Part shown: positions 3,413 through 28,785 of the stretch, in pieces
Position numbering within the stretch: position 1 is the first letter of the stretch
How the letters are laid out: each line of letters starts with the position of its first letter
Sequence record: PZ229304.1
Source: a phage
Length of the DNA: 64,000 nt
Direction: 5' to 3' (one strand)
The notes under the pieces: generated by a model
What the model was told of the DNA's origin: nothing
Database searches by the model: none
Seen by the model: the letters and a program-made list of their open reading frames with translations, nothing else
Program-made: the position numbers and the translations under genes

Positions 3413-6187
3413 TTAGTTTACCAGTTTATTTATATCTGGTAAAAGATTTATTTCACCTAAAAAATCACCTTCACCTTCCTCTAACCAACTCTCATATGCT
3501 TGTGCATGATTATAGTTACCATCAAAAGAATCTGCAACAAATTTTTCTACAGTTTTTCGAGATGTGTCAGCGCCAAATACACCAAGTTTAATACCATTGA
3601 TCGGTAAAGTGGTACTTGTTGGTACTTTCTCTGTTGCAACACGGTTGATATCTATAATCTCCTGTACGGTTGTGTTCCATTGTAAGCATTTAACACAACG
3701 GGTATGCGCTACATACAGTAGGTTTCGCTCTGCCTCTTCCAGTCCTACCCATTCACCAGTCTTTTTATCATAGTTGGAAGGAAAATCATTAGCAACAATA
3801 ACCTGATCCCACTCCAAACCTTTAGACTTGTGTGCTGTAGTCAGTGTGACTTTTGCTGTAGGAGAATTTCTATGCGTTCTAAGTGTATGTGCTATAGTGT
3901 TTGCCTTACCAGAAACTACGATGTTTAACAAGCGTTTAGCATCTGGATCAGCCTCTGCACACTCAACAAATTCATTCCAGTCTGCGTAAGGTAATACAGT
4001 TTCATGTTTTACTTTCTCAATATCTCCTCTCCGAAGAGCATTAACACTATCTACCATAGAGATAAAATCCCTGGTATCTACGTTAATAATAATTTCTTCC
4101 CCATCTGCAATACGATCCATTGCCTCCATAAGCAAGGTTAAATTCTTGCGAAAGATGATAGTGTAAGGTTTTGTATAGTCTACAACATCTGATTTGTAGC
4201 TACCTACTACAGTATCAAAGCCTTTACCAACCAAAGGGTGACGCAAAGGTTCTTTATCGCTTAAAATCATATTGGCAATGTTTGCCACTTTGGGGCCAAA
4301 ACGGAAGCAAGCAGTTAATGGAAGCTCTGCTCCATACTTAGCTGTTTCAATCATCATATTAGAGCTACCTCTAAATTGATAAATGCAGTTGTGGCTAAGA
4401 ATTTCATTACCAAAGAAGTTAGCAGTATCCTCTACTTCAATATCATAATAGATACCTTCACTATCTACAATGTCCACAATTTCTTCTGCCGTTACAGTAT
4501 CACCATCTTTTACCAACACAGACATGCCTTTAAACAAACCCGCCGCCGGAATTAAAGTATATTTGGCGGTGTTCACAGAGGACATGCATTCTTTTAAAGA
4601 TGCAAACGGCACTATTTCAAGGATCTTTTGTGCAAAACTCAATGCTTCACGATAAGAATTGAAATATTTACGTACACGGTAACGACCTTCCAACTTAGCA
4701 ACACTTACGCTTACACCTGCTTCAATGAGTGAAGCATAGATTGACATTTCACTTTCTGTCCACTCAAAACTAACTTGTGTTCCTTTACAACCTTGTGCTC
4801 GCAAAGTCACTGTTAACATTTTTCTTTCATCTACTGCACAATTGATGCTGTGCCAATGTGGATAAGCAAAATGATAATCTTTATCCTCTAAAAGTTTAAA
4901 ACCGTTTTGTCCGAATTGTTCAAAAATGTTATTGATCCTTTCTTGATTAATGCCGCGTGAACTTGCTTCAAATACACAAGTAGGAATGCCATATTGTAAA
5001 CTGTATGCCATTTCTTTTTCCATAGCAGCTTCACGGTTTTCAACAATATCCAACACCCATAATTTCTGTGCTTTTTCAGAACGTGTACGTTGCCCCAGTT
5101 TAGAAAAACCTTCTTTATCATCGAATTTGTTAGTGATCCCTACTCGGAAACCTAAATCTTTCCTCCACATTAGGTATACCACCATCTGATCATCTTTCAG
5201 AACATAGGATGAAGCCCAAATACGATGGTTATGTGTCATATCTAAAGTTTTACCTGTGGCAGTAATAATATTCCTACCTTTTGTACGTGTAGATAAAGTC
5301 TTATTTGTTACTTTTCTAAATGTAATTTTACCATTAGAATAAGACTCTACCTTATCACCGATTTGTAGGTCTTTCATTGTAACCTGACCATTCTCGGTAT
5401 TAAGTACCGTGTTTTCCGACACACATTGGAATTCATCGCCCACTACCACAATTTGTTTTGCAGATTTAGCATTTCGCAGAATAGACAAGAATGCAGGGTT
5501 AACATCCTGGAATTCATCACCAAAAATAATGTCATAACCAAGGTCAGCACCTGATAATTCAAACAATTTTACATAGGTGTCATGCGTCATCAAAGTATCT
5601 GTGTTAGGATCGATGCGCTCTCGCCACAATTGTTTTGCATACTTAACTACTTCTGTAATTAGTTTGTGTTCGTTAATACCTTTTCTTTTAATATCTGCAA
5701 GATGTACACTAGGAAAATGTTTACGGCTGATAAAAGGATCATCCGAAAATTCAAACTTACCTACGGTTTGCTTGATCATTAAACCAATCATAGCACGAGT
5801 TAACAGTGTTTTCCCTCGTTTATCAATAAGATTATTAATCTTAAATTTCTTTGCTATCTCGCTACCTGTACCTGCAACGTTAACATACTGTCCTTCTGGT
5901 CGTGACAGTTTTGCACGTAAACGATGATCCAGGAATTGATAGCAAATAGAATGCAATGTACGGCATTCTACATTTAGTGGCATCTTACGTCGTGCTTCTT
6001 CTGCCATGCTTTTATTGAAAGCTAAGTAAAGAATGCGATCTTCTGTACTGTTAGCCAGCAAATAAAGTGTTGACGTTTTGCCTGATCCAGATTTAGCTTG
6101 GATAGTTAAAAAGCGATGGTCTGGAAAAGCCTCCTTAATAGCTGTTTGCTCTTCTGTTGGAGTGAAGCTCAACTCTTTCTTAGCCAT
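3413..6187 (-). CDS. UvrD/PcrA-like SF1 DNA helicase interrupted by an in-frame intein
   Basis: Walker A (AKSGSGKTST), motif II (GDEFQDVNP), motif III split as GDEFQ / C-IYQFRGS, motif V (TAHKSKGLEWDQVIV), motif VI (LLYVAHTRC). Start trimmed from TTG at 6226 to ATG at 6187 with RBS. Confidence 0.8.
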   Translation of the reverse strand: MAKKELSFTPTEEQTAIKEAFPDHRFLTIQAKSGSGKTSTLYLLANSTEDRILYLAFNKSMAEEARRKMPLNVECRTLHSICYQFLDHRLRAKLSRPEGQYVNVAGTGSEIAKKFKINNLIDKRGKTLLTRAMIGLMIKQTVGKFEFSDDPFISRKHFPSVHLADIKRKGINEHKLITEVVKYAKQLWRERIDPNTDTLMTHDTYVKLFELSGADLGYDIIFGDEFQDVNPAFLSILRNAKSAKQIVVVGDEFQCVSENTVLNTENGQVTMKDLQIGDKVESYSNGKITFRKVTNKTLSTRTKGRNIITATGKTLDMTHNHRIWASSYVLKDDQMVVYLMWRKDLGFRVGITNKFDDKEGFSKLGQRTRSEKAQKLWVLDIVENREAAMEKEMAYSLQYGIPTCVFEASSRGINQERINNIFEQFGQNGFKLLEDKDYHFAYPHWHSINCAVDERKMLTVTLRAQGCKGTQVSFEWTESEMSIYASLIEAGVSVSVAKLEGRYRVRKYFNSYREALSFAQKILEIVPFASLKECMSSVNTAKYTLIPAAGLFKGMSVLVKDGDTVTAEEIVDIVDSEGIYYDIEVEDTANFFGNEILSHNCIYQFRGSSNMMIETAKYGAELPLTACFRFGPKVANIANMILSDKEPLRHPLVGKGFDTVVGSYKSDVVDYTKPYTIIFRKNLTLLMEAMDRIADGEEIIINVDTRDFISMVDSVNALRRGDIEKVKHETVLPYADWNEFVECAEADPDAKRLLNIVVSGKANTIAHTLRTHRNSPTAKVTLTTAHKSKGLEWDQVIVANDFPSNYDKKTGEWVGLEEAERNLLYVAHTRCVKCLQWNTTVQEIIDINRVATEKVPTSTTLPINGIKLGVFGADTSRKTVEKFVADSFDGNYNHAQAYESWLEEGEGDFLGEINLLPDINKLVN
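4388..5425 (-). mobile_element. intein (346 aa) inside helicase motif III; central domain may be a homing endonuclease of unidentified type
   Basis: N-terminal Cys (codon aca at 5423-5425 on plus, TGT on minus), block B-like TxxH (MTHNH), C-terminal YDIEVEDTANFFGNEILSHN followed by +1 Cys (4385-4387); removing it restores the canonical motif III GDEFQ-CIYQFRG. Confidence 0.7.
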
Positions 6188-6188
6188 T

Positions 6189-6665
6189 TCAACCTCTCTT
6201 AATTTGTTTAACAAGCATAGGAACAAAGTCTCGTTTTAAAATTTGTTCAATAATATGATCAGGTAGCTGTTGGAAATTATAATTAAAAGCTACTGTCTCA
6301 CCTTTAGGTGTTTCTACCCGCACATATAACATGTTACGAAGTTTATCCACTTGTGCTGTATATTCTAAACCATGTAATTGATGCATTGCAAACATCAAAT
6401 CATCAGTTTCAGTTTGGAATCTATCCCTTCCCTGCATCAAGGACAAGGAAAAAGGTAGATTTTCCCTAAGAGCCACCTTCTTAGGCACTAGTGAAGGGAA
6501 ATACTCCCCAATAACTGCCTGTGTAAGCTGAATACACTCTTTTTCAAGCTGGTTTTGTTCCTTGAGTTCACAAACACTCTTTTGTAAAGTGTTAACCTCT
6601 TTTTGCAAAGCTGCTAGTTGAGCACTTAACTTTCTTTTTTGATTACGACCAAAACGTTTAGACAT
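6189..6665 (-). CDS. hypothetical protein
   Basis: 158-aa track ORF, ATG start. Confidence 0.45.
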   Translation of the reverse strand: MSKRFGRNQKRKLSAQLAALQKEVNTLQKSVCELKEQNQLEKECIQLTQAVIGEYFPSLVPKKVALRENLPFSLSLMQGRDRFQTETDDLMFAMHQLHGLEYTAQVDKLRNMLYVRVETPKGETVAFNYNFQQLPDHIIEQILKRDFVPMLVKQIKRG

Positions 6666-11286: not shown

Positions 11287-11640
11287 TTACATCCACAGAT
11301 TATGAAAATACTTAGCGAACAAAATGCGACCTTCTAAACGATCTTGCCGCTGTTTTTCATTAACTTCTTCTGGTGGAGTTGAGTCCTTAAAAGAAGACTC
11401 CATTTTTTCAAGAATTTCTAACCAGTGTTCTGCTGCTCGTTCTTCCATATAAGGTAGATAGTCACCTTTAGCGTGTGGGTACATCCGACGAAGTAACCCA
11501 CTAGGAATTTTAACATTGTTTGTGGCTATCACTTTTGCACGATACGCAGAAAGTGCGTTGTAGATCAGTTTACTTAGTGTCACATCCAGATCAAGAAGAT
11601 CACTCTCTTCAAATTGAATTTCATCGTGTACAATTTTCAT
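11287..11640 (-). CDS. hypothetical protein
   Basis: 117-aa track ORF. Confidence 0.45.
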   Translation of the reverse strand: MKIVHDEIQFEESDLLDLDVTLSKLIYNALSAYRAKVIATNNVKIPSGLLRRMYPHAKGDYLPYMEERAAEHWLEILEKMESSFKDSTPPEEVNEKQRQDRLEGRILFAKYFHNLWM

Positions 11641-11924
11641 CGTGCCTTCTCCCGATCTGCATCTAATTTCAACAAGAAAGCTGTATACTCTTCCGAACCT
11701 TGGTGTAAAAACATGTGATAAGAGCTTACCAGTTTCTTCGTTGTCGTATAACGTTCCATTTCCCCAACAACACCTCCACCTAGTGTGTAGAGCACAATAC
11801 CTTCAACTCCAACATAGGTTACTACTTCAACCAAATCTGTGTTATCCCAATAGTAGTTAGGTGACACAATAAGATCGCCCACTGCCAGTTTAATGTTTGC
11901 TACTTCATCTTGTGAATAGTACAT
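11637..11924 (-). CDS. hypothetical protein
   Basis: 95-aa track ORF, 4-nt overlap with downstream gene. Confidence 0.45.
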   Translation of the reverse strand: MYYSQDEVANIKLAVGDLIVSPNYYWDNTDLVEVVTYVGVEGIVLYTLGGGVVGEMERYTTTKKLVSSYHMFLHQGSEEYTAFLLKLDADREKAR

Positions 11925-11936
11925 TTTGTTCTCCTC

Positions 11937-12227
11937 TCACATTAAGACACGTTTTGTATTGATGGGGGCATTGTCGAACATGTTTATCACTTTGTCAAGT
12001 TTGTGTATTAACTCGTTCGTAATGTTCCACTCTTTGTATGATCTCCATTGCTTCTTATTCTCACCTACCTGGTGTAAAACTTTTATTGGTGCATTCAAAC
12101 GTACATTGCGTTCTTTGTCCTCTTCAAAAGAGGCTAACCATTTTTCGTTATGTCCATGAACAGCAATAATAATGCCAAAACCATCAAAAGTTTCTGTAAT
12201 ATTCTTAGTTGCTAGTGTGATGTTCAT
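11937..12227 (-). CDS. hypothetical protein
   Basis: 96-aa track ORF; first gene of the minus block, divergent from the plus island. Confidence 0.45.
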   Translation of the reverse strand: MNITLATKNITETFDGFGIIIAVHGHNEKWLASFEEDKERNVRLNAPIKVLHQVGENKKQWRSYKEWNITNELIHKLDKVINMFDNAPINTKRVLM

Positions 12228-12346
12228 ATCTAACCTCTTTTGTTACGATGCACACAGAGTACCAGAAATTAATTTCAGATCAAGTATTGACATACTGTTT
12301 TATTGTGCTAATCTTAATGCATACACAAATGAGAGGAGATAAACGA

Positions 12347-12898
12347 ATGCAAAACATCGATCTTACTTGGATAGAAGCCAAAGAAGCAATGTTAAAAGGT
12401 AAACGCGTTAAACATAAATACTTTTGCGAAGGAGAATGGTTTGAAATGCGTAACCGATCCCTTATAGATGAAAAAGGGAATGACATGCAACAATGGTTCA
12501 AAAATGAAATTTGGCAGGGAACAGGTTGGTCTGTAGTTGAAGAGCAGCCTAGCTCAAGCGCACTGTTTAGCCCTATTATGTATCGCGTTATCGGTGCTTT
12601 AGTTGTTGATCACGGGATTGCAGTGGAAAAAGAATGCTGGGAAGAGGTATCTTTTTTCAACCTGGCTTCTTATGCAAAAAGCCATATGCACTTGTTTGAA
12701 GAAGGGGATGAATTTGTTCTTCGTATGCGATATGGCAAAGAATTCAGATTACCACTTGATAACGATGTAGACACTGTTGTAAAATGGTTAGCAGAGCATT
12801 ACGCTTACGATGCAATTTGTGGTCGCAGCTTCGGCAACGAACGCTGGGACATGATTTGTGAAAAATATGATTTTGAGCCGGAGTACGGAGTTTTATAA
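12347..12898 (+). CDS. DUF2829/Tad2-like N-terminal domain fused to an uncharacterised C-terminal domain
   Basis: Trimmed to ATG 12347 (GAGAGGAG RBS). N-terminus MQNIDLTWIEAKEAMLKGKRVKHKYF..GEWFEM fits the DUF2829 pattern (L.W..A..A...GK.V) by recollection, not by alignment. Confidence 0.4.
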   Translation: MQNIDLTWIEAKEAMLKGKRVKHKYFCEGEWFEMRNRSLIDEKGNDMQQWFKNEIWQGTGWSVVEEQPSSSALFSPIMYRVIGALVVDHGIAVEKECWEEVSFFNLASYAKSHMHLFEEGDEFVLRMRYGKEFRLPLDNDVDTVVKWLAEHYAYDAICGRSFGNERWDMICEKYDFEPEYGVL

Positions 12899-13149
12899 TG
12901 TTAAGTATCAAACCTAAAATGATAACAGAAGACGAAGCAGACTTTATTTTCAAATGTGGACGTGTATGGAGAGAATTCACAAAAGGAAATGAAGTGGTTG
13001 TTGTTGTCGAACACAAGATATCTATCCAGGATCTGTTTGGACAATATGTTGATGTTATTAAATTAGGTATTGACAAGGGTTTAGTTGAGGTGTTAACATT
13101 AGATCAAGTTGAAGCAGAGCACCTCGATAAAGTGGTGGTTGAATTTTAA
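12898..13149 (+). CDS. hypothetical protein
   Basis: 83-aa track ORF, start overlaps upstream stop. Confidence 0.4.
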   Translation: MLSIKPKMITEDEADFIFKCGRVWREFTKGNEVVVVVEHKISIQDLFGQYVDVIKLGIDKGLVEVLTLDQVEAEHLDKVVVEF

Positions 13150-13169
13150 AATACAGACGGGAGAAAGGT

Positions 13170-13343
13170 ATGAGTTTCTTTGTTACAGTATTTATGGCTA
13201 TCTGGATTGTAGTCTCACTCGTTCTTTTCCTGGTGGGTTGTCTGGAAGAGATTAAGAAAGCGGTTATTTGCGGTTTCTTTGGCTTTATTATCTCTCCTGC
13301 CTGGATGTGGTTCTTCATTATGATTGGTTTCCTTAAAAGGTAA
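13170..13343 (+). CDS. small membrane protein (57 aa)
   Basis: Own translation MSFFVTVFMAIWIVVSLVLFLVGCL..; GGGAGAAAGG RBS; below track cut-off. Confidence 0.35.
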   Translation: MSFFVTVFMAIWIVVSLVLFLVGCLEEIKKAVICGFFGFIISPAWMWFFIMIGFLKR

Positions 13344-13357
13344 GTGAGGAATAAAGA

Positions 13358-13795
13358 ATGAGTAAAACAAACGCAATCGCAGATAAAGCAACGGATGTAC
13401 TTCTGAACATGGTTAACGTCACTATTCAAACAATGAGTGATGTTGTAGAGTTTGGAAAACAACAAATTCCAGAAGTAATCCATCAATTATTAGTGTGGAA
13501 AGCAGTATCCGCAGGTTTATGGCAACTTTTTAGTATTTGCTTTATGTTTATTACTTTTATTGCTGTGCGGAACCTCGTAAAAGCAATTAAAGATAAAGAA
13601 TGCCTGTGGTCACGAGATCGCTATGGTGAAGTATCTCCTTTACCTATTGTTGGCCTTGTTGTCTGTGCTTTCTTTTTCTTTTTAGGATTTGTTATTTTCT
13701 TTTCGAATTTTGATTGGCTAAAAATCATTATTGCACCAAAAGTGTATCTGATTGAATTTGCTGCTGATTTAATTCGTTCATCTCAACAAAAATAA
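13358..13795 (+). CDS. membrane protein (predicted TM helices)
   Basis: Hydrophobic segments AVSAGLWQLFSICFMFITFIAV and IVGLVVCAFFFFLGFVIFF. Confidence 0.5.
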   Translation: MSKTNAIADKATDVLLNMVNVTIQTMSDVVEFGKQQIPEVIHQLLVWKAVSAGLWQLFSICFMFITFIAVRNLVKAIKDKECLWSRDRYGEVSPLPIVGLVVCAFFFFLGFVIFFSNFDWLKIIIAPKVYLIEFAADLIRSSQQK

Positions 13796-13806
13796 AAGGG
13801 GTTAAA

Positions 13807-14934
13807 ATGAAATACACGATTTATGGTGATATTGTAAGTGTAAATAAAGATATGGGCGTGGAATCTAACTATCTTCCACCTGGATTCTATACTGTTAGTC
13901 GTGATCCCCTTGGCAATTACTTTTTAAGCCGTGGTAATCTAACAGGTGTACCGGATGTTCTGTATGGTGAAACAGAAAAACGAGCAAATCACGTTATTCG
14001 TACATTCCATCGCCGGAGTGCACAAGGTAAAAATACAGGCTTGCTTCTGACAGGAACTAAGGGCAGTGGTAAAACTATGTTAGCCAAACTCATTAGTCGT
14101 GACCTTGTAGAAGAAGGTATTCCAACTATTATGGTTACTCAAGCCTACAGTGATGCTAATTTCATTGAACTTATTAGTAAGATCACCGACAAAGCAGTGA
14201 TTATTTTTGACGAATTTGATAAAGTATATGAGAAGAAACAAGATCAAGAAGCACTTCTCACTTTGTTAGATGGTACTGGCAGTGGTAATAAACTGTTTAT
14301 TCTAACTAAAAACAGTGGCTTTATCTCTGAATTCTTTCTAAATCGTCCTAGTCGTGTGTTTTATAATTTTAATTATGATAAAATCTCACTAGAAACTATG
14401 ATTGACTATTTAGATAAAAACCTGGATAACAAAGCACACTTGGATAATTTCCAAAGGCTTTGGGATGTAAGTTTAGAGTTGTCCTTTGATGTGATCCAAG
14501 GTATAGTAGAAGAACTTAATTTCTACCCTGATTTATCCTTTAAAGAATGCATCTCTATGATGGGCGTTTCTTTGGGTGGTGGTAATAAGTGGGATATCAG
14601 CAGCGTTGTTATTAATGGGAAACTTCAGAAAGTTAGCTGGGTATCTAGTTGGCATAACTTCACACCTGCAATCTTTTTAGGTGGCTCGTGCACACTAGAC
14701 GTGTACTTGTCATCTCCAAGTGATGCAGACTCTAAAGAAGCCCTTGCTAATAGCTCTTACGTGGTTTTTGATGATGAAGGAGATGCTCGAATTCCATTGA
14801 ATGCGACAAAAATGAAAGCAGATCTTATTACAGGCGGTAAAATCGTTGTGTTTAGTGATGATCCAGAAGATTCTTTCCGTATTGTTCTGGAACCAACTAT
14901 CACCAATGGTGCAACTTTGGCAAGTGTGTTTTAA
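13807..14934 (+). CDS. AAA+-type ATPase with uncharacterised C-terminal domain
   Basis: Walker A GTKGSGKTMLAKL and Walker B VIIFDEFDK. Confidence 0.6.
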   Translation: MKYTIYGDIVSVNKDMGVESNYLPPGFYTVSRDPLGNYFLSRGNLTGVPDVLYGETEKRANHVIRTFHRRSAQGKNTGLLLTGTKGSGKTMLAKLISRDLVEEGIPTIMVTQAYSDANFIELISKITDKAVIIFDEFDKVYEKKQDQEALLTLLDGTGSGNKLFILTKNSGFISEFFLNRPSRVFYNFNYDKISLETMIDYLDKNLDNKAHLDNFQRLWDVSLELSFDVIQGIVEELNFYPDLSFKECISMMGVSLGGGNKWDISSVVINGKLQKVSWVSSWHNFTPAIFLGGSCTLDVYLSSPSDADSKEALANSSYVVFDDEGDARIPLNATKMKADLITGGKIVVFSDDPEDSFRIVLEPTITNGATLASVF

Positions 14935-14949
14935 GTAAGCCAGCAAATA

Positions 14950-14974
14950 AAAACCCGCTTCGGCGGGTTTTCTT
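14950..14974 (+). terminator. intrinsic terminator
   Basis: AACCCGCTTCGGCGGGTT hairpin followed by TTCTTG. Confidence 0.6.
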
Positions 14975-15008
14975 GCATTAATGCCAGATTTAATAAGAGG
15001 AGTAGTAG

Positions 15009-16202
15009 ATGGCAGCACCAAAATCATGGGAACAATATAAAGAAGAGTGTCAACCTATTGCGAATAATAAAGGGATTGAGATCCTAGGATATGTTGAACC
15101 GTTTATAGGTTGTGATACGAAAATGATTCTACGCTGTAGGCAGGAACATGAATGGAAGACTTGTAGTATTAGTAATTTCAAGCACGGTAACAGTTGTCCT
15201 ATCTGTTCTGGTAAGAAGCCGTTAACATGGGAAACAGAATTGCCGATCTTGGAAGAGATAGCACAGAAGAAGGGGTATCAGGTGTTAGGGTACGTTGGAG
15301 AATGGAAAGGGAATAAAACAAAACTTGATTTGTTGTGCCATTGTGGGAATAGATGGCAAAGTACAGCAATTCATCAATTTAAAGGCGGTCGAGGTTGTCC
15401 ACAATGTAGGGGGGAGAATACAAGGAAGGCACTAACAATGTCCGACGATCAACATATTGCAGATTTCTTTTCTACAGGGAAATTTAAGGAAGGCACTATC
15501 TTCACTAACACAGGAACACGGAGTAAAGGATGCAGGCATAGTATCTGGATGGTTGAATGTCCTGTTTGCTCTCATGATGAATATGTTCAAGCAGGTGTTT
15601 GTGATGGTAAATTTTACTCTGAAGGAAATAACCTTAAACGAGGGTGCATTCCGTGTCGTTGTGGAAACTATCGGTATACAGAAGACCAGATCACCTATAG
15701 GGTAAAAAAGGAAGTAGAAGGGCAAGGGTATGTCTGGGTAGGTTGGATCGGTAAACCGTCTAGAAGTCACGGTAAGTTTAAATATCTTTGTCTTGTGCAT
15801 GGGGAACAGACAGGGAGGGCTAATAACTTATTAAGCCTCGGTCAAGGTTGTCCACAGTGTGCTGGTCATAATCAACAGCAATTATATATTAATATTGTTA
15901 AAGATAATGATATTATAGTGGCTCTTAAGTTTGGTATAGCTAAAGATAGTGATAGGCGATTAAATAGTCAAAATAGTTGTAATATGTTTTTTATGGAGCG
16001 TATTTGTTTATATGATTTTAGCACAGTGAAACAATGTAAGGCTGCTGAAAGAGCTATAAAGAAAAAATTAAAAACTGGTATTTTAACGGAAAGAGAGTTG
16101 AAAGACGGTTATACAGAAACAGTAAGTGTTTCTGATTTGGAAAATCTTCAAGAAATTATTACACAACATGGTGGCAAATTAGTATATAATAAGGAGATGT
16201 AA
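15009..16202 (+). CDS. tandem zinc-ribbon repeat protein with C-terminal GIY-YIG-like (T5orf172-type) putative nuclease domain
   Basis: About four repeats of GY..G.....K......C..GH.W.....F..G..CP.C.G (CPICSGKK, CPQCRGEN, CPVCSHDE, CPQCAGHN); C-terminus YINIVKDNDIIVALKFGIAKD..RRL..N...ERI.LYDF resembles the T5orf172/GIY-YIG pattern by recollection. Confidence 0.5.
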   Translation: MAAPKSWEQYKEECQPIANNKGIEILGYVEPFIGCDTKMILRCRQEHEWKTCSISNFKHGNSCPICSGKKPLTWETELPILEEIAQKKGYQVLGYVGEWKGNKTKLDLLCHCGNRWQSTAIHQFKGGRGCPQCRGENTRKALTMSDDQHIADFFSTGKFKEGTIFTNTGTRSKGCRHSIWMVECPVCSHDEYVQAGVCDGKFYSEGNNLKRGCIPCRCGNYRYTEDQITYRVKKEVEGQGYVWVGWIGKPSRSHGKFKYLCLVHGEQTGRANNLLSLGQGCPQCAGHNQQQLYINIVKDNDIIVALKFGIAKDSDRRLNSQNSCNMFFMERICLYDFSTVKQCKAAERAIKKKLKTGILTERELKDGYTETVSVSDLENLQEIITQHGGKLVYNKEM

Positions 16203-16754
16203 ATGCGGATTACTGATAAATATGTGTTCTTCTTCTCGGCAAAAGATGAATTTAGCAACTGGTATCTATCATCTTTTATTGAACCTTTAGCTCCCAAGTA
16301 TAATAATTCTATTACAAGTTCTGTTGAATTTACTTGTGTGGAACAATATATGATGTGGAGAAAAGCATGTTTGTTTTATGATTACAACATTGCATCTTCT
16401 ATTTTAACCGGAGATCTAAGATATACAGGAGAAAAAGAACAGGCATATTATAAGCGACTAGGTAGATTAGTTAAAGATTACGATGAAGCTACTTGGACTT
16501 CTTTACGGGAGAAGATTGTCAAGCGTGGTTTGTATCTTAAATACACACAAAATGAAGATCTCAAAAATAAACTTATCGCTTACGCAGATAAGGAGTTCGT
16601 AGAGGCAAGCCCTTATGATTCTATTTATGGTATCAAAATGGGAATGTGGGATCGTGATGTGGAAAATAAGGACTGTTGGAAAGGACAAAATCTTTTAGGA
16701 AAATGGCATACAGACCTTGCTGTTTATCTAAAAGCACAATCTGATATTTCCTGA
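16203..16754 (+). CDS. NADAR (YbiA-like, DUF1768) domain protein
   Basis: FFFSAKDEFSNWYLSSF, FTCVEQYMMWRKACLF and SPYDSIYGIKMGMWDRD..KDCWKGQNLLGKWHTDLAV parallel the YbiA motifs FYS..D.YG.FSNF, TSEHYFQA.KF and D.YWG.G..G.G.N.LG. Confidence 0.7.
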   Translation: MRITDKYVFFFSAKDEFSNWYLSSFIEPLAPKYNNSITSSVEFTCVEQYMMWRKACLFYDYNIASSILTGDLRYTGEKEQAYYKRLGRLVKDYDEATWTSLREKIVKRGLYLKYTQNEDLKNKLIAYADKEFVEASPYDSIYGIKMGMWDRDVENKDCWKGQNLLGKWHTDLAVYLKAQSDIS

Positions 16755-16967
16755 TATTTTGAAAATTTTTATTTTTATAAAAAGGGGTGTGGGTTTCATG
16801 TACGGAAATCCACCCTCTGAATAATATATCCAGAGTAAATATTATTCTGTACTCTGTTAATAAAGTATTTAATTTGTTTGTTGGACTATGGTATCTGATC
16901 TTTAAAAGGCATACTATCTCTTAACTACTACTTATAACAGAACAGTAAAATCATTTTTATAAAAAGG

Positions 16968-17170
16968 ACAAAATTATTTAAAGTTTTTACAGATTTTTGG
17001 GTACAAATTTTGAAAATGAAAAGTTCAAGTTTGGTCAAAATTATTTAAAGTTTTTGTATGTATTTCTATCCAGATTTTGAAAATGAAAACTTCAATTTTT
17101 TAAAAATTCCCCAGTTTATTTAAAGTTTTTTTGCCTTTTTCCGTAGAAAAATCAAAAATGAAAAGTTCAA
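16968..17170. repeat. three tandem direct repeats of about 67-72 bp (TATTTAAAGTTTTT ... TTTTGAAAATGAAAAGTTCAA), iteron-like
   Basis: Read directly in non-coding DNA. Confidence 0.6.
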
Positions 17171-17196
17171 TTTCGTGTTTTTATAGGTGTGCGTAT

Positions 17197-17306
17197 GATA
17201 ATCATTCTCATTTGTAAATGAGAATCATTATCATTTAAGTATGTAAGTGATAATCATTCTCATTAAGAGAATGAGAATCATTAGCAAATGAGAATTTTTC
17301 TCATTT
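17197..17306. promoter_or_regulatory. cluster of Fur-box-like palindromes (GATAATCATTCTCATT x2, AATGAGAATCATTATC)
   Basis: AAATGAGAATCATTATC matches the Fur consensus GATAATGATAATCATTATC at about 16/19 by hand. Confidence 0.45.
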
Positions 17307-17567
17307 AGAGAATAACGCGCAGGGGCGGTGTTTGTCTCGCGCTCCCGTGTCCCCTCGCCATACAATAAGAATAGCATAACCAACAACAAAAGCAAGCGAT
17401 TATTTTTATCTTTACATTTCTTTACAAATTTATTTTAGACGAGCTACCGGCGATCAACCTTCCAACCAGTGCCCCCTGGTATGTTAGCCCCGCCTTTACG
17501 CCGTGGGGGTGGCGCTTCCTCTTCTGTATGTAAAACAGTATAAGCCCGATCCCTGGGCTTGTCAAGA

Positions 17568-17834
17568 TTATTTTTTGTTTTCTTGCCAGGATAGGACACC
17601 TAACCAAAAATACATGTCGCCCCGCGCCCCTGGTGGGATCTTGCTTTCCCCGCCGCCACTGCAAGCCCATAGATAACCATTAGCGAACGGATCAAAGTTT
17701 TCTATTTCTTCCACCTTATGATCGCCCAGGTTGAGAACGGTTTCGACCTTTAAGCCCGTTGCGCTTGCTACCTGGTGCACCGTGCCGCCTTGCCAGCCCA
17801 ATGAGTGCATAAGGTGTAAAGTAGTATTTGTCAT
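17568..17834 (-). CDS. hypothetical protein (uncertain)
   Basis: 88-aa ORF with ATG and weak RBS in a GC-rich stretch where overlapping spurious frames are common. Confidence 0.25.
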   Translation of the reverse strand: MTNTTLHLMHSLGWQGGTVHQVASATGLKVETVLNLGDHKVEEIENFDPFANGYLWACSGGGESKIPPGARGDMYFWLGVLSWQENKK

Positions 17835-17933
17835 GGTATCGCCCTTTCTTTGATGTGCGCCCTGGTTGGCGCGGTAGAAAGATAATAGCCGTTTCCTTTA
17901 TAGATAGCAAGCAAAAAAAGAAATGAAAAAAGA

Positions 17934-18266
17934 TTAAAAAAATGGTTGACGTTCCTCACCTGGTAGCGTAATATTCATCTTGTCGAGGGGGGCAAGGCAC
18001 AACGACAATAAACAATAGGCGGGTGCAATGCATGACGGGCAAAGGTGAGGATCTCCACAATCCACCGTCACAATAACATTACTTATAAAAGGTTGATAAC
18101 GATGATCAAGAAAGAAAATAGCTTGACGGTTGGAACGATTAACGCTATCATTCTCGCCGTTCCATTTTGGATTGTAGTGGCGGTTGTTATTTTCTAAAAA
18201 ATATTCTTGACAACGTTTTTTAATCTGATAAGATGTATCACATAGGGCGGCAATAGTGCCGCTCAT
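17934..18266 (-). CDS. hypothetical Cys-rich protein (uncertain)
   Basis: 110-aa ORF with ATG start, but its 5' end overlaps the promoter/hairpin of the first plus-strand cassette. Confidence 0.2.
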   Translation of the reverse strand: MSGTIAALCDTSYQIKKRCQEYFLENNNRHYNPKWNGENDSVNRSNRQAIFFLDHRYQPFISNVIVTVDCGDPHLCPSCIAPAYCLLSLCLAPLDKMNITLPGEERQPFF

Positions 18267-18286
18267 AACAGAAGAGAGAAATAATC

Positions 18287-27629: not shown

Positions 27630-27833
27630 CCTAAATAAAGATGATAGCTTTTACCTATCAAAAACGTTCACCGAAAAAAGTGAATAGATCGCGGTATCGA
27701 GCTAATCAAGGAGCAGATGAACAACCATACCATGAAGATCATAAGGCGCTTACAGCGTGTTTTAGACCGCTTATTTTTAATTTCTTCATGCAACTATTTG
27801 GCAAAAACAGCCTTTTTCTTGTCTTTCCTCTTA

Positions 27834-27907
27834 AATGATAATCATTCTTATTTATAGCTGATTATTTATGCAATAAACTGCATAATGCAATAATGATAAT
27901 CATTCTT
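27834..27907. promoter_or_regulatory. two Fur-box-like sites (AATGATAATCATTCTTA and AATAATGATAATCATTCTT)
   Basis: Second site about 16/19 to the Fur consensus by hand. Confidence 0.45.
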
Positions 27908-28766: not shown

Positions 28767-28785
28767 GCAAATGATAATCATTATC
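28767..28785. promoter_or_regulatory. near-consensus Fur-box-like site GCAAATGATAATCATTATC
   Basis: 17/19 identity to GATAATGATAATCATTATC by hand. Confidence 0.5.

Follow-up and report, generated by a model that had tools for sequence, protein, structure and literature searches.

The 64,000-nucleotide stretch of phage DNA analyzed here (sequence record PZ229304.1; hereafter the window) contains a run of plus-strand genes that raises a simple question: do they form one coordinated system, or do they merely share a promoter? The initial annotation had proposed an undescribed counter-defense or DNA-modification-reversal module. Our analysis favors a different reading, in which the promoter-proximal operon of the rightward region is probably a row of functionally independent genes under one promoter, with no multiprotein machine.

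Organization of the operon and its surroundings

The 4.4-kb plus-strand block was confirmed as seven closely packed open reading frames (ORFs) between positions 12347 and 16754 (Table 1), and close relatives carry the same gene annotations. A ~29-kb rightward region of this phi92-like E. coli phage (Justusliebigvirus), with positive GC skew from 12 to 41 kb, begins with this operon. A minus-strand block to the left of the operon ends at 12227. The second minus-strand block, which the initial annotation had placed to the right, proved to be a single conserved 88-amino-acid (aa) ORF (17568-17834), beyond which plus-strand genes continue to about 41 kb. A tRNA search found none.

A sigma-70-like sequence upstream of the first gene would be the promoter of the operon. 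This candidate was not among the matches of a consensus promoter scan; it resembles the TTGACA...TAnnAT early promoters that are repeated downstream (repeat families D3 and D6). Just 3' of the last gene, a stable hairpin lacking a U-tract likely marks the end of the operon transcript, where it would act as a terminator, and in phAPEC8 a terminator is annotated at the corresponding place. A literature search found no transcriptome paper on this phage group, which is also outside the scope of the HIDEN-SEQ essentiality paper; the operon would be expressed early and as a single transcript.

The repeat-rich non-coding hub previously noted after the block is indeed present. Searches against Rfam at gathering and permissive thresholds found no RNA family, and miRNA matches over the Fur-box repeats were rejected as palindrome artifacts. 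A conserved non-coding segment was likewise rejected as a stable RNA: its single-sequence fold was no better than those of shuffles (z +0.5), and a covariation analysis of the segment yielded one covarying pair only.

Table 1. Features of the operon and the adjoining non-coding stretch (positions in the window)
Feature	Position	Strand	Description
Promoter candidate	12287..12314	+	sigma-70-like; TTGACA, 16 nt, TGcTAATCT; read directly from the sequence
Ribosome-binding site GAGAGGAGA	12332-12339	+	upstream of the start at 12347
p1	12347..12898	+	183 aa, phi92 gp217; Tad2/AcrIIA7-fold N-domain and chaperone-like C-domain
p2	12898..13149	+	83 aa; phrog_4868; without Pfam match
p3	13170..13343	+	57 aa; phrog_22950; hydrophobic segments about 1-29 and 31-55
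p4	13358..13795	+	145 aa; phrog_3054; hydrophobic segments about 49-77 and 89-126
p5	13807..14934	+	375 aa; classical-clade AAA+ ATPase; phrog_2376
p6	15009..16202	+	397 aa; DNA-binding array of four CapR zinc fingers, then C-terminal T5orf172 (GIY-YIG-like)
p7	16203..16754	+	183 aa; NADAR ADP-ribosyl-guanine glycohydrolase, orthologue of NADAR^Bas60
Stable hairpin	16783..16818	+	just 3' of the last gene; centroid -19 kcal/mol, z -2.7
Repeat-rich non-coding stretch	16755-18286		tandem repeats (three, ~70 nt each) and clustered Fur-box-like sites

The NADAR gene and the predicted nuclease gene upstream of it

Profile searches bore out the earlier calls for the last two genes of the operon, a NADAR protein preceded by a protein with zinc-ribbon repeats and a T5orf172/GIY-YIG-like end. 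p7 matched PF08719 with an E value of 2.3e-36 (126 bits, cutoff 35.1) and TIGR02464 with 109.8 bits (cutoff 73.7). It differs at 3 of 183 positions from the Bas60 protein encoded at the same locus, and at 1 of 183 from each of the Bas61 and Bas62 proteins. In an alignment with the solved NADAR 8bau, residues E47, K54, and E134 fall on its catalytic Glu/Lys/Glu (EQY..K and EAS motifs). The active site of NADARs has a Glu, a Lys, and a second acidic residue, which are E88/K95/D171 in E. coli C7; E43/E125 are the corresponding acidic residues in the solved P. nicotianae enzyme. E134 is the YbiA-type glutamate, in contrast to a histidine in T4-type AdfN and an aspartate in DarT1-linked NADARs. NADAR^Bas60 and AdfN belong to the orphan NADARs of phages, antitoxin-like enzymes that counter DarTG1 (PMC11257639; for the enzymology, PMC11543638), and NADAR^Bas60 alone strips DarT1-made ADP-ribose from DNA guanine and restores phage growth on DarTG1 hosts (PMC11257639). 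p7 belongs to this family and to the same phage lineage, with no substantive difference, and would be expected to act against DarTG1 as does this orthologue, on which the experiment was performed. The "DNA methyltransferase" label found in relatives was rejected, since the gene so labeled is the NADAR gene.

In p6, PF21817 (CapR) matched four stretches (E = 1.1e-38, 131.7 bits), five CxxC motifs are present, and PF10544 (T5orf172) matched residues 298-356 with 22.1 bits, a narrow margin over its cutoff of 20. The protein falls into phrog_681, "endonuclease" (E = 4e-84), and is 32% identical to putative homing endonucleases of ICP1 (ORF165 region). It has the same domain order as the T5orf172 homing endonucleases of Vibrio phage ICP1, from which the proteins CapR and Odn are derived (PMC10448857, PMC8096241), and the combination of CapR repeats with T5orf172 is a homing-endonuclease design (PMC10448857). 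Judged by this architecture, p6 is predicted to be a T5orf172 nuclease guided by its CapR zinc-finger array. Near-identical phages carry p6 alleles with 3, 4, or 5 repeats and a conserved C-terminal half, a repeat-number polymorphism shared with ICP1 gp174. Identity across the genus ranges from 68 to 100% in p6, whereas it is at least 99.5% in the flanking AAA protein (55 genomes).

Unlike the patchily distributed T5orf172 genes of ICP1, p6 is present at a single locus in all genomes of two genera (56/56 Justusliebigvirus genomes, with homologues in Phapecoctavirus) and lies directly upstream of an anti-defense gene. Such fixation in both E. coli genera differs from the patchy occurrence that active homing would be expected to produce. 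p6 may be a fixed selfish element, the cutting of which could spread the adjacent NADAR gene during coinfection. Alternatively, it might be a domesticated, Odn-like targeting nuclease directed against satellite, competing phage, or host DNA, with an arms race behind the changes in its repeat array. The fixed locus would suit domestication, as would the GIY-YIG-like motif positions, which look intact in an alignment read by eye, and the concentration of variation in the N-terminal DNA-binding repeats next to a conserved nuclease domain; moreover, the related phages Inny and Muut have a separate T5orf172 protein, for which satellites are the proposed target. However, repeat gain and loss has also been described for actively homing T5orf172 genes (PMC10448857), and Klebsiella phage phi1_175008 lacks the gene at the corresponding position, consistent with a mobile gene having inserted. 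We consider domestication of p6 possible, if somewhat unlikely.

The predicted Tad2-like fold of p1 and the small proteins that follow

p1 had initially been described as a DUF2829/Tad2-like domain fused to a second domain. The fold of this proposal stood, but its family assignment by profile did not: p1 had no match to PF11195 (DUF2829/Tad2) in Pfam at E ≤ 1, and 5 of 32 homologues matched that profile, with a best E value of 0.0028. The best PDB profile match of the N-domain family (about residues 1-69 of p1) was SptTad2 (E = 0.088), to which the family profile aligns at the ends only (residues 3-22 and 82-100). In the predicted structure, an N-terminal helix is followed by an antiparallel beta sheet, and residues ~1-65 superpose on ModTad2 and AcrIIA7 with 1.5-1.8 Å over 57-58 residues; two motifs, one in the N-terminal helix and the W...W at the C-terminal end, can be aligned with SptTad2. 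The model thus supports a DUF2829/Tad2 identity of p1 at the level of fold only. Tad2 and AcrIIA7 (DUF2829, PF11195) are sponges for gcADPR, His-ADPR, and cyclic dinucleotides, and AcrIIA7 has also been reported to bind tracrRNA (10.1101/2023.11.15.567273, PMC13133391). Tad2 is a tetramer, and its central insertion and loops form the gcADPR and cyclic-dinucleotide pockets. The p1 domain differs from these proteins in its length (~65 residues against 86-104), in lying below the Pfam threshold, and in its fusion to a second domain.

This C-domain (residues 73-183) resembles type III secretion chaperones (CesT, SycT, and AvrPphF ORF1) and the YbjN family, with an identity of only 7-22% and, unlike the chaperones, in a phage context without a secretion system; the likeness is one of fold, and homology is not claimed. 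Fused to this C-domain, the N-domain is present in 32/56 Justusliebigvirus genomes; it is absent from 24/56. It also occurs as a separate ~60-aa gene (phrog_3474) in many phages of Klebsiella, Salmonella, Citrobacter, Erwinia, and other enterobacteria. What is new here, modestly, is a short Tad2-fold family of ~65 residues and its fusion to a secretion-chaperone-like domain. Possible binding partners of p1 are small nucleotides, RNA, and host proteins. It is doubtful whether the ~60- to 65-residue phrog_3474 domain is a new minimal Tad2/AcrIIA7 branch missed by Pfam, working as an immune-nucleotide sponge or RNA binder that is tethered to a chaperone-like domain and shares an operon with an anti-DarT enzyme.

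The start of p2 overlaps the stop of p1 (TAATG). Homologues of p2 (77% identical in phAPEC8, 61% in phi1_175008) lie downstream of a homologue of the p1 C-domain, adjacent to it in phAPEC8 and with one gene between them in phi1_175008. BLAST searches with p3 against the block genes of phAPEC8 found no homologue, and other small proteins occupy its place there. In phi1_175008, a p4 homologue with 44% identity is encoded just 5' of the AAA gene. The two hydrophobic segments in each of p3 and p4 agree with their first description as small membrane proteins, and both may be lineage-specific early membrane proteins. Pfam, NCBIfam, and PADLOC searches returned nothing useful for p1 to p4; the roles suggested for p1 to p5 derive from fold or family resemblance only.

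The AAA+ ATPase and the probable independence of the genes

p5 matched PF00004 (E = 1.5e-9, 38.9 bits, cutoff 21.2), as expected from its earlier identification as an AAA+ ATPase. Walker A, Walker B, and the NRPxR arginines are invariant across 46 homologues (G83, G86, K89, T90, D135, E136, N169, R180, and R183). Foldseek neighbors of its AF2 model (pLDDT 86) were Bcs1, proteasomal Rpt, FtsH, Cdc48, and Bacillus subtilis YjoB, with which p5 shares the AAA core fold, Walker A/B, and the arginine-finger motif. Unlike classical AAA+ remodelers, p5 has no protease or membrane domain but its own additions to the core, a small beta domain at the N terminus and a beta-rich one at the C terminus. The label "FtsH-like protease" in BASEL records was rejected for lack of a protease domain. 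No aromatic pore-loop motif was seen in p5 by eye. p5 would be a hexameric protein remodeler, present as a stand-alone gene in many large virulent phages. Its family occurs in 380 phage records, among them jumbo phages and phages of Gram-positive bacteria, and the gene stands alone, without other block genes, in Aeromonas, Salmonella, and jumbo Yersinia phages. The AAA counts (56 and 77 records) equal those of NrdA.

The AAA, T5orf172, and NADAR genes are each present in 56/56 Justusliebigvirus genomes of the collection, a distribution at odds with the term "accessory" first applied to the block, and each has homologues in Phapecoctavirus. The order AAA-T5orf172-NADAR is common to both genera, with two extra genes between T5orf172 and NADAR in phAPEC8. 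This conserved order and the one apparent promoter speak against functional independence; because the order is kept in two genera and the promoter is apparently shared, a functional link between neighbors is possible. A single coordinated module of all seven genes could further be argued from the tight promoter-proximal packing, in which stops and starts overlap or abut, and from the presence of a proven anti-defense gene and an anti-defense-fold domain in one operon. We nevertheless regard such a module as improbable. NADAR is sufficient alone, and it is found without the other genes, in differing contexts, in phages FBKp34 (Klebsiella) and Mydo (Proteus); the AAA gene is alone in many unrelated phages, and the Tad2-fold domain is missing from almost half of the genus. 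Parts of the operon are also exchanged: p3 and p4 are replaced in phAPEC8, and phi1_175008 retains the p1 C-domain, p2, p4, and AAA, but has two different genes where T5orf172 and NADAR would be. Outside the immediate lineage, the components were not found as a coinherited set, as AAA, NADAR, and the p1 N-domain each occur alone, and the sole PADLOC match was to the NADAR model. The initial proposal is supported in part: counter-defense would hold for NADAR, whereas the parts of the operon occur apart and no joint system was found. That the block serves core replication or morphogenesis, for example with the AAA protein as helicase or clamp loader, is highly improbable: the AAA gene occurs throughout the subfamily and in many large phages, and it has weak profile matches to DnaC-like and clamp-loader families, but these cover the generic P-loop core only and lie far below the family cutoffs, the fold neighbors and the NRPxR second-region-of-homology motif place p5 in the classical protein-remodeling AAA clade, which led us to reject it as a replication loader, and the other six genes have no replication or structural signature.

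Independent genes under one promoter thus remain the preferred reading, and current concepts are unchanged by it. The clearest counter-defense gene, NADAR against DarTG1, is already known by experiment on NADAR^Bas60. The analysis is of practical value for annotation: across about 130 candidate phages for therapy, phi92-like and phAPEC8-like, the labels "hypothetical," "FtsH-like protease," "DNA methyltransferase," and "endonuclease" can be replaced by anti-DarTG1 NADAR, T5orf172/CapR homing-type nuclease, classical AAA+ remodeler, and Tad2-fold-domain protein. The short Tad2-fold family is a cheap screening candidate against Thoeris and CBASS. Finally, a homing-type nuclease gene just upstream of an anti-defense gene offers a testable case of how such nucleases might spread useful neighbors, and the Klebsiella relative, in which the end-of-operon slot is taken by another gene whose NADAR-like signal is weak, provides another testable example.

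Layout and strand context of the predicted operon

The 4.6-kb region matched 91 phage records, and its top matches, Escherichia phages arall and Eryne (98.8% identity), are members of the phi92-like genus Justusliebigvirus (subfamily Stephanstirmvirinae); the block opens with p1, which is phi92 gp217. The proposed gene block is real: positions 12347 to 16754 are filled almost without gaps by seven plus-strand ORFs, and the same genes were called in close relatives by both curated and automatic annotation. The p1 stop and p2 start overlap (TAATG), p6 and p7 abut, and a stable hairpin (16783 to 16818) lies 3' of p7. Upstream of the start at 12347, GAGAGGAGA and also TTGACA(12287)-16 nt-TGcTAATCT were found.

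The initial annotation had described an opposite-strand island between two minus-strand blocks. On the right, there is only a single minus-strand ORF of 88 aa, followed by plus-strand genes up to ~41 kb. Since plus-strand genes extend this far and GC skew stays positive between 12 and 41 kb, the block is the predicted opening operon of an extended rightward region and not an island. Three minus-strand genes to its left (11287 to 12227) are homologues of phAPEC8 genes 242, 244, and 245, which in the phAPEC8 locus (L003, 2027 to 3502) are on the plus strand and co-oriented with the block. This difference in strand indicates that the segment was inverted between the genera, with a breakpoint at the block promoter region. 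One of the three products, a 95-aa protein encoded at 11637 to 11924 (minus strand), was 100% identical across both genera; its neighbors share 64 to 66 identical residues of ~96 to 118 between genera.

Coordinates of features in and beside the operon
Feature	Position	Strand	Remarks
p1	12347-12898	+	ORF
p2	12898-13149	+	ORF
p3	13170-13343	+	ORF
p4	13358-13795	+	ORF
p5	13807-14934	+	ORF
p6	15009-16202	+	ORF
p7	16203-16754	+	ORF
Three tandem AT-rich repeats	16953-17173		~67-75 nt each, 72% identity between copies
Fur-box-like main cluster, overlapping sites	17194-17312		non-coding stretch directly 3' of block
GC-rich non-coding segment	~17315-17565	-	core ~17409-17534
88-aa ORF	17568-17834	-	phrog_19316, E = 7e-59; annotated in relatives (bas62_0108)
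Other Fur-box-like sites	27832-27907; 28767-28785; 4867-4885

The non-coding stretch downstream of the operon

As the initial annotation had noted, the block is followed by a repeat-rich non-coding stretch (16755 to 18286). Its tandem repeats, situated between the operon end and the Fur-box-like cluster, could be origin-like or protein-binding iterons. Fur-box-like sites were named by similarity to the E. coli Fur box consensus, GATAATGATAATCATTATC; allowing up to three mismatches, the window contained 6 such sites versus 0.04 expected by chance. The cluster could confer iron-dependent control on a phage promoter or titrate Fur.

Positions 17300 to 17900 showed ~94% identity between Justusliebigvirus and Phapecoctavirus, compared to only 57 to 64% for neighboring proteins. 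The core of the GC-rich segment still showed 81 to 85% identity in Vequintavirinae phages infecting Klebsiella, Cronobacter, and Pectobacterium, where the equivalent site is mostly unannotated. A near-consensus minus-strand candidate promoter (TTGACA-17-TATACT, 17565 to 17537), conserved in the alignment, would drive a leftward transcript through this core. RNAalifold revealed one clearly covarying pair in the segment, formed as A-U in 5 sequences and as G-C in 4, along with G-U pairs consistent with the minus strand; the segment had no match in Rfam, and its single-sequence fold was no more stable than those of shuffles. It may represent a conserved non-coding RNA or DNA element. The 88-aa ORF is conserved and stands alone on the minus strand within the non-coding stretch. 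Each of the small plus-strand genes between 18207 and 27170 has a repeated cassette upstream (at least 8 copies), in which a TTGACA...TAnnAT promoter is followed by CACATAGG and then by the stem-loop GGCGGGAAATGGTTTCCCGCC, an arrangement similar to the promoter/stem-loop cassettes found in T4-type early regions.

Products of the operon

The NADAR assignment of p7 was confirmed (PF08719, E = 2.3e-36). Its locus is the same as that of NADAR^Bas60, which is encoded by Bas60, Bas61, and Bas62 (Johannesman and colleagues, PMC11257639), and of the 183 residues of p7, 3 are changed relative to the Bas60 protein, against a single one relative to each of the Bas61 and Bas62 proteins. When aligned with the solved NADAR 8bau, p7 has E47, K54, and E134 at the catalytic positions. 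Expression of NADAR^Bas60 alone gave several-log higher titers for three DarTG1-sensitive phages and neutralized DarT1 toxicity; phage growth was not rescued against DarTG2 (PMC11257639). Going by this correspondence, the predicted function of p7 is already explained by the published NADAR^Bas60. Counter-defense thus holds for one function, NADAR, which is not an undescribed one.

Four CapR zinc-finger stretches (PF21817, E = 1.1e-38) and a T5orf172 domain (PF10544, 22.1 bits versus a cut-off of 20) were detected in p6, in agreement with the zinc-ribbon repeats and T5orf172/GIY-YIG-like domain proposed initially. This design is exactly that of the T5orf172 homing endonucleases defined in phage ICP1, in which a C-terminal nuclease follows an N-terminal series of repeated CapR-type zinc-finger DNA-binding domains, and recombination adds or removes repeats (Barth and colleagues, PMC10448857); p6 is 32% identical to the putative ICP1 homing endonucleases. 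Across Justusliebigvirus, p6 identity ranged from 100% down to 68%, whereas the flanking AAA protein kept an identity of 99.5% or more in 55 records. In an alignment of Bas60, Bas61, Bas62, and the window, the repeats numbered 3 in Bas61, 4 in the window and Bas62, and 5 in Bas60, and the C-terminal half, nuclease included, was conserved. The gene occurs in 56/56 Justusliebigvirus genomes and also in phAPEC8-type phages; Klebsiella phage phi1_175008 lacks it at the position 3' of its AAA gene. By its design, p6 belongs to a known class of protein, and it may still be homing or may have been domesticated.

The AAA+ ATPase assignment of p5 likewise stood (PF00004, E = 1.5e-9), with Walker A, Walker B, and NRPxR arginine motifs invariant across 46 homologues. 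The structures nearest to its AF2 model (pLDDT 86) were protein remodelers: Bcs1, proteasomal Rpt subunits, YjoB, FtsH, and Cdc48. By tblastn, the family was present in 380 phage records, including jumbo phages and phages of Aeromonas, Proteus, Bacillus, Staphylococcus, Enterococcus, and Lactococcus; in 3/3 distant genomes inspected, the other block genes were absent beside it. The same search hit two places per Justusliebigvirus record versus one in Phapecoctavirus, indicating a second, weaker match elsewhere in the genome; the window contained no second copy.

PHROGs and exhaustive searches resolved p1 into two fused modules, of a ~60-aa and a ~111-aa family, both of which also occur as separate genes elsewhere. 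The trimmed family profile matched SptTad2 at its two ends only (residues 3 to 22 and 82 to 100); therefore, the p1 N-domain is a short version of the Tad2 fold, and it appears to lack much of the Tad2 central region, which holds an inter-strand insertion and several pocket-forming loops. The Tad2/DUF2829-like label applies to the fold and not to family membership. Searches of Pfam, NCBIfam, and PADLOC gave no match for p1. Both p3 and p4 contain two hydrophobic segments.

Conservation and variation of the gene combination

Genera were counted by the core gene NrdA (at least 95% identity, Justusliebigvirus; 80 to 90%, Phapecoctavirus), which gave 56 and 77 records, respectively. The AAA protein yielded the same numbers, and 56 records were also obtained for NADAR at ≥95% (Phapecoctavirus copies, 56 to 59%) and for p6 at ≥60% identity. 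Hence, these three large genes are universal in Justusliebigvirus, and "accessory" does not describe them.

The remaining parts are less constant. Fusion of the two p1 modules was found in 32 of 56 Justusliebigvirus genomes, and Bas61 and phAPEC8 have the C-module only. In phAPEC8, the order p1C-p2-...-AAA-T5orf172-(two extra genes)-NADAR is retained, with p3 and p4 replaced by other small proteins. Phage phi1_175008 retains p1C, p2, p4, and AAA, and its operon closes with two other genes; the final one (6005 to 6622 of its locus, L013) encodes a 205-aa DUF6939 protein (E = 1e-9) that also weakly matches (E = 0.012) a DarT1-associated NADAR model. Interchangeable enzymes of similar purpose may occupy this end-of-operon slot. 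The NADAR homologues of Klebsiella phage FBKp34 and Proteus phage Mydo have unrelated gene neighborhoods.

Because p1, p3/p4, and the 3' genes vary and NADAR occurs in unrelated contexts, the combination is a lineage-specific juxtaposition, whose backbone is stable and whose 3' slot varies, and not a co-inherited system. Of the initial interpretation, the gene content and one counter-defense function remain, but not an undescribed single module. New, modest elements are the short Tad2-fold family with its fusion to a chaperone-like domain, and a homing-type nuclease adjoining an anti-defense gene.
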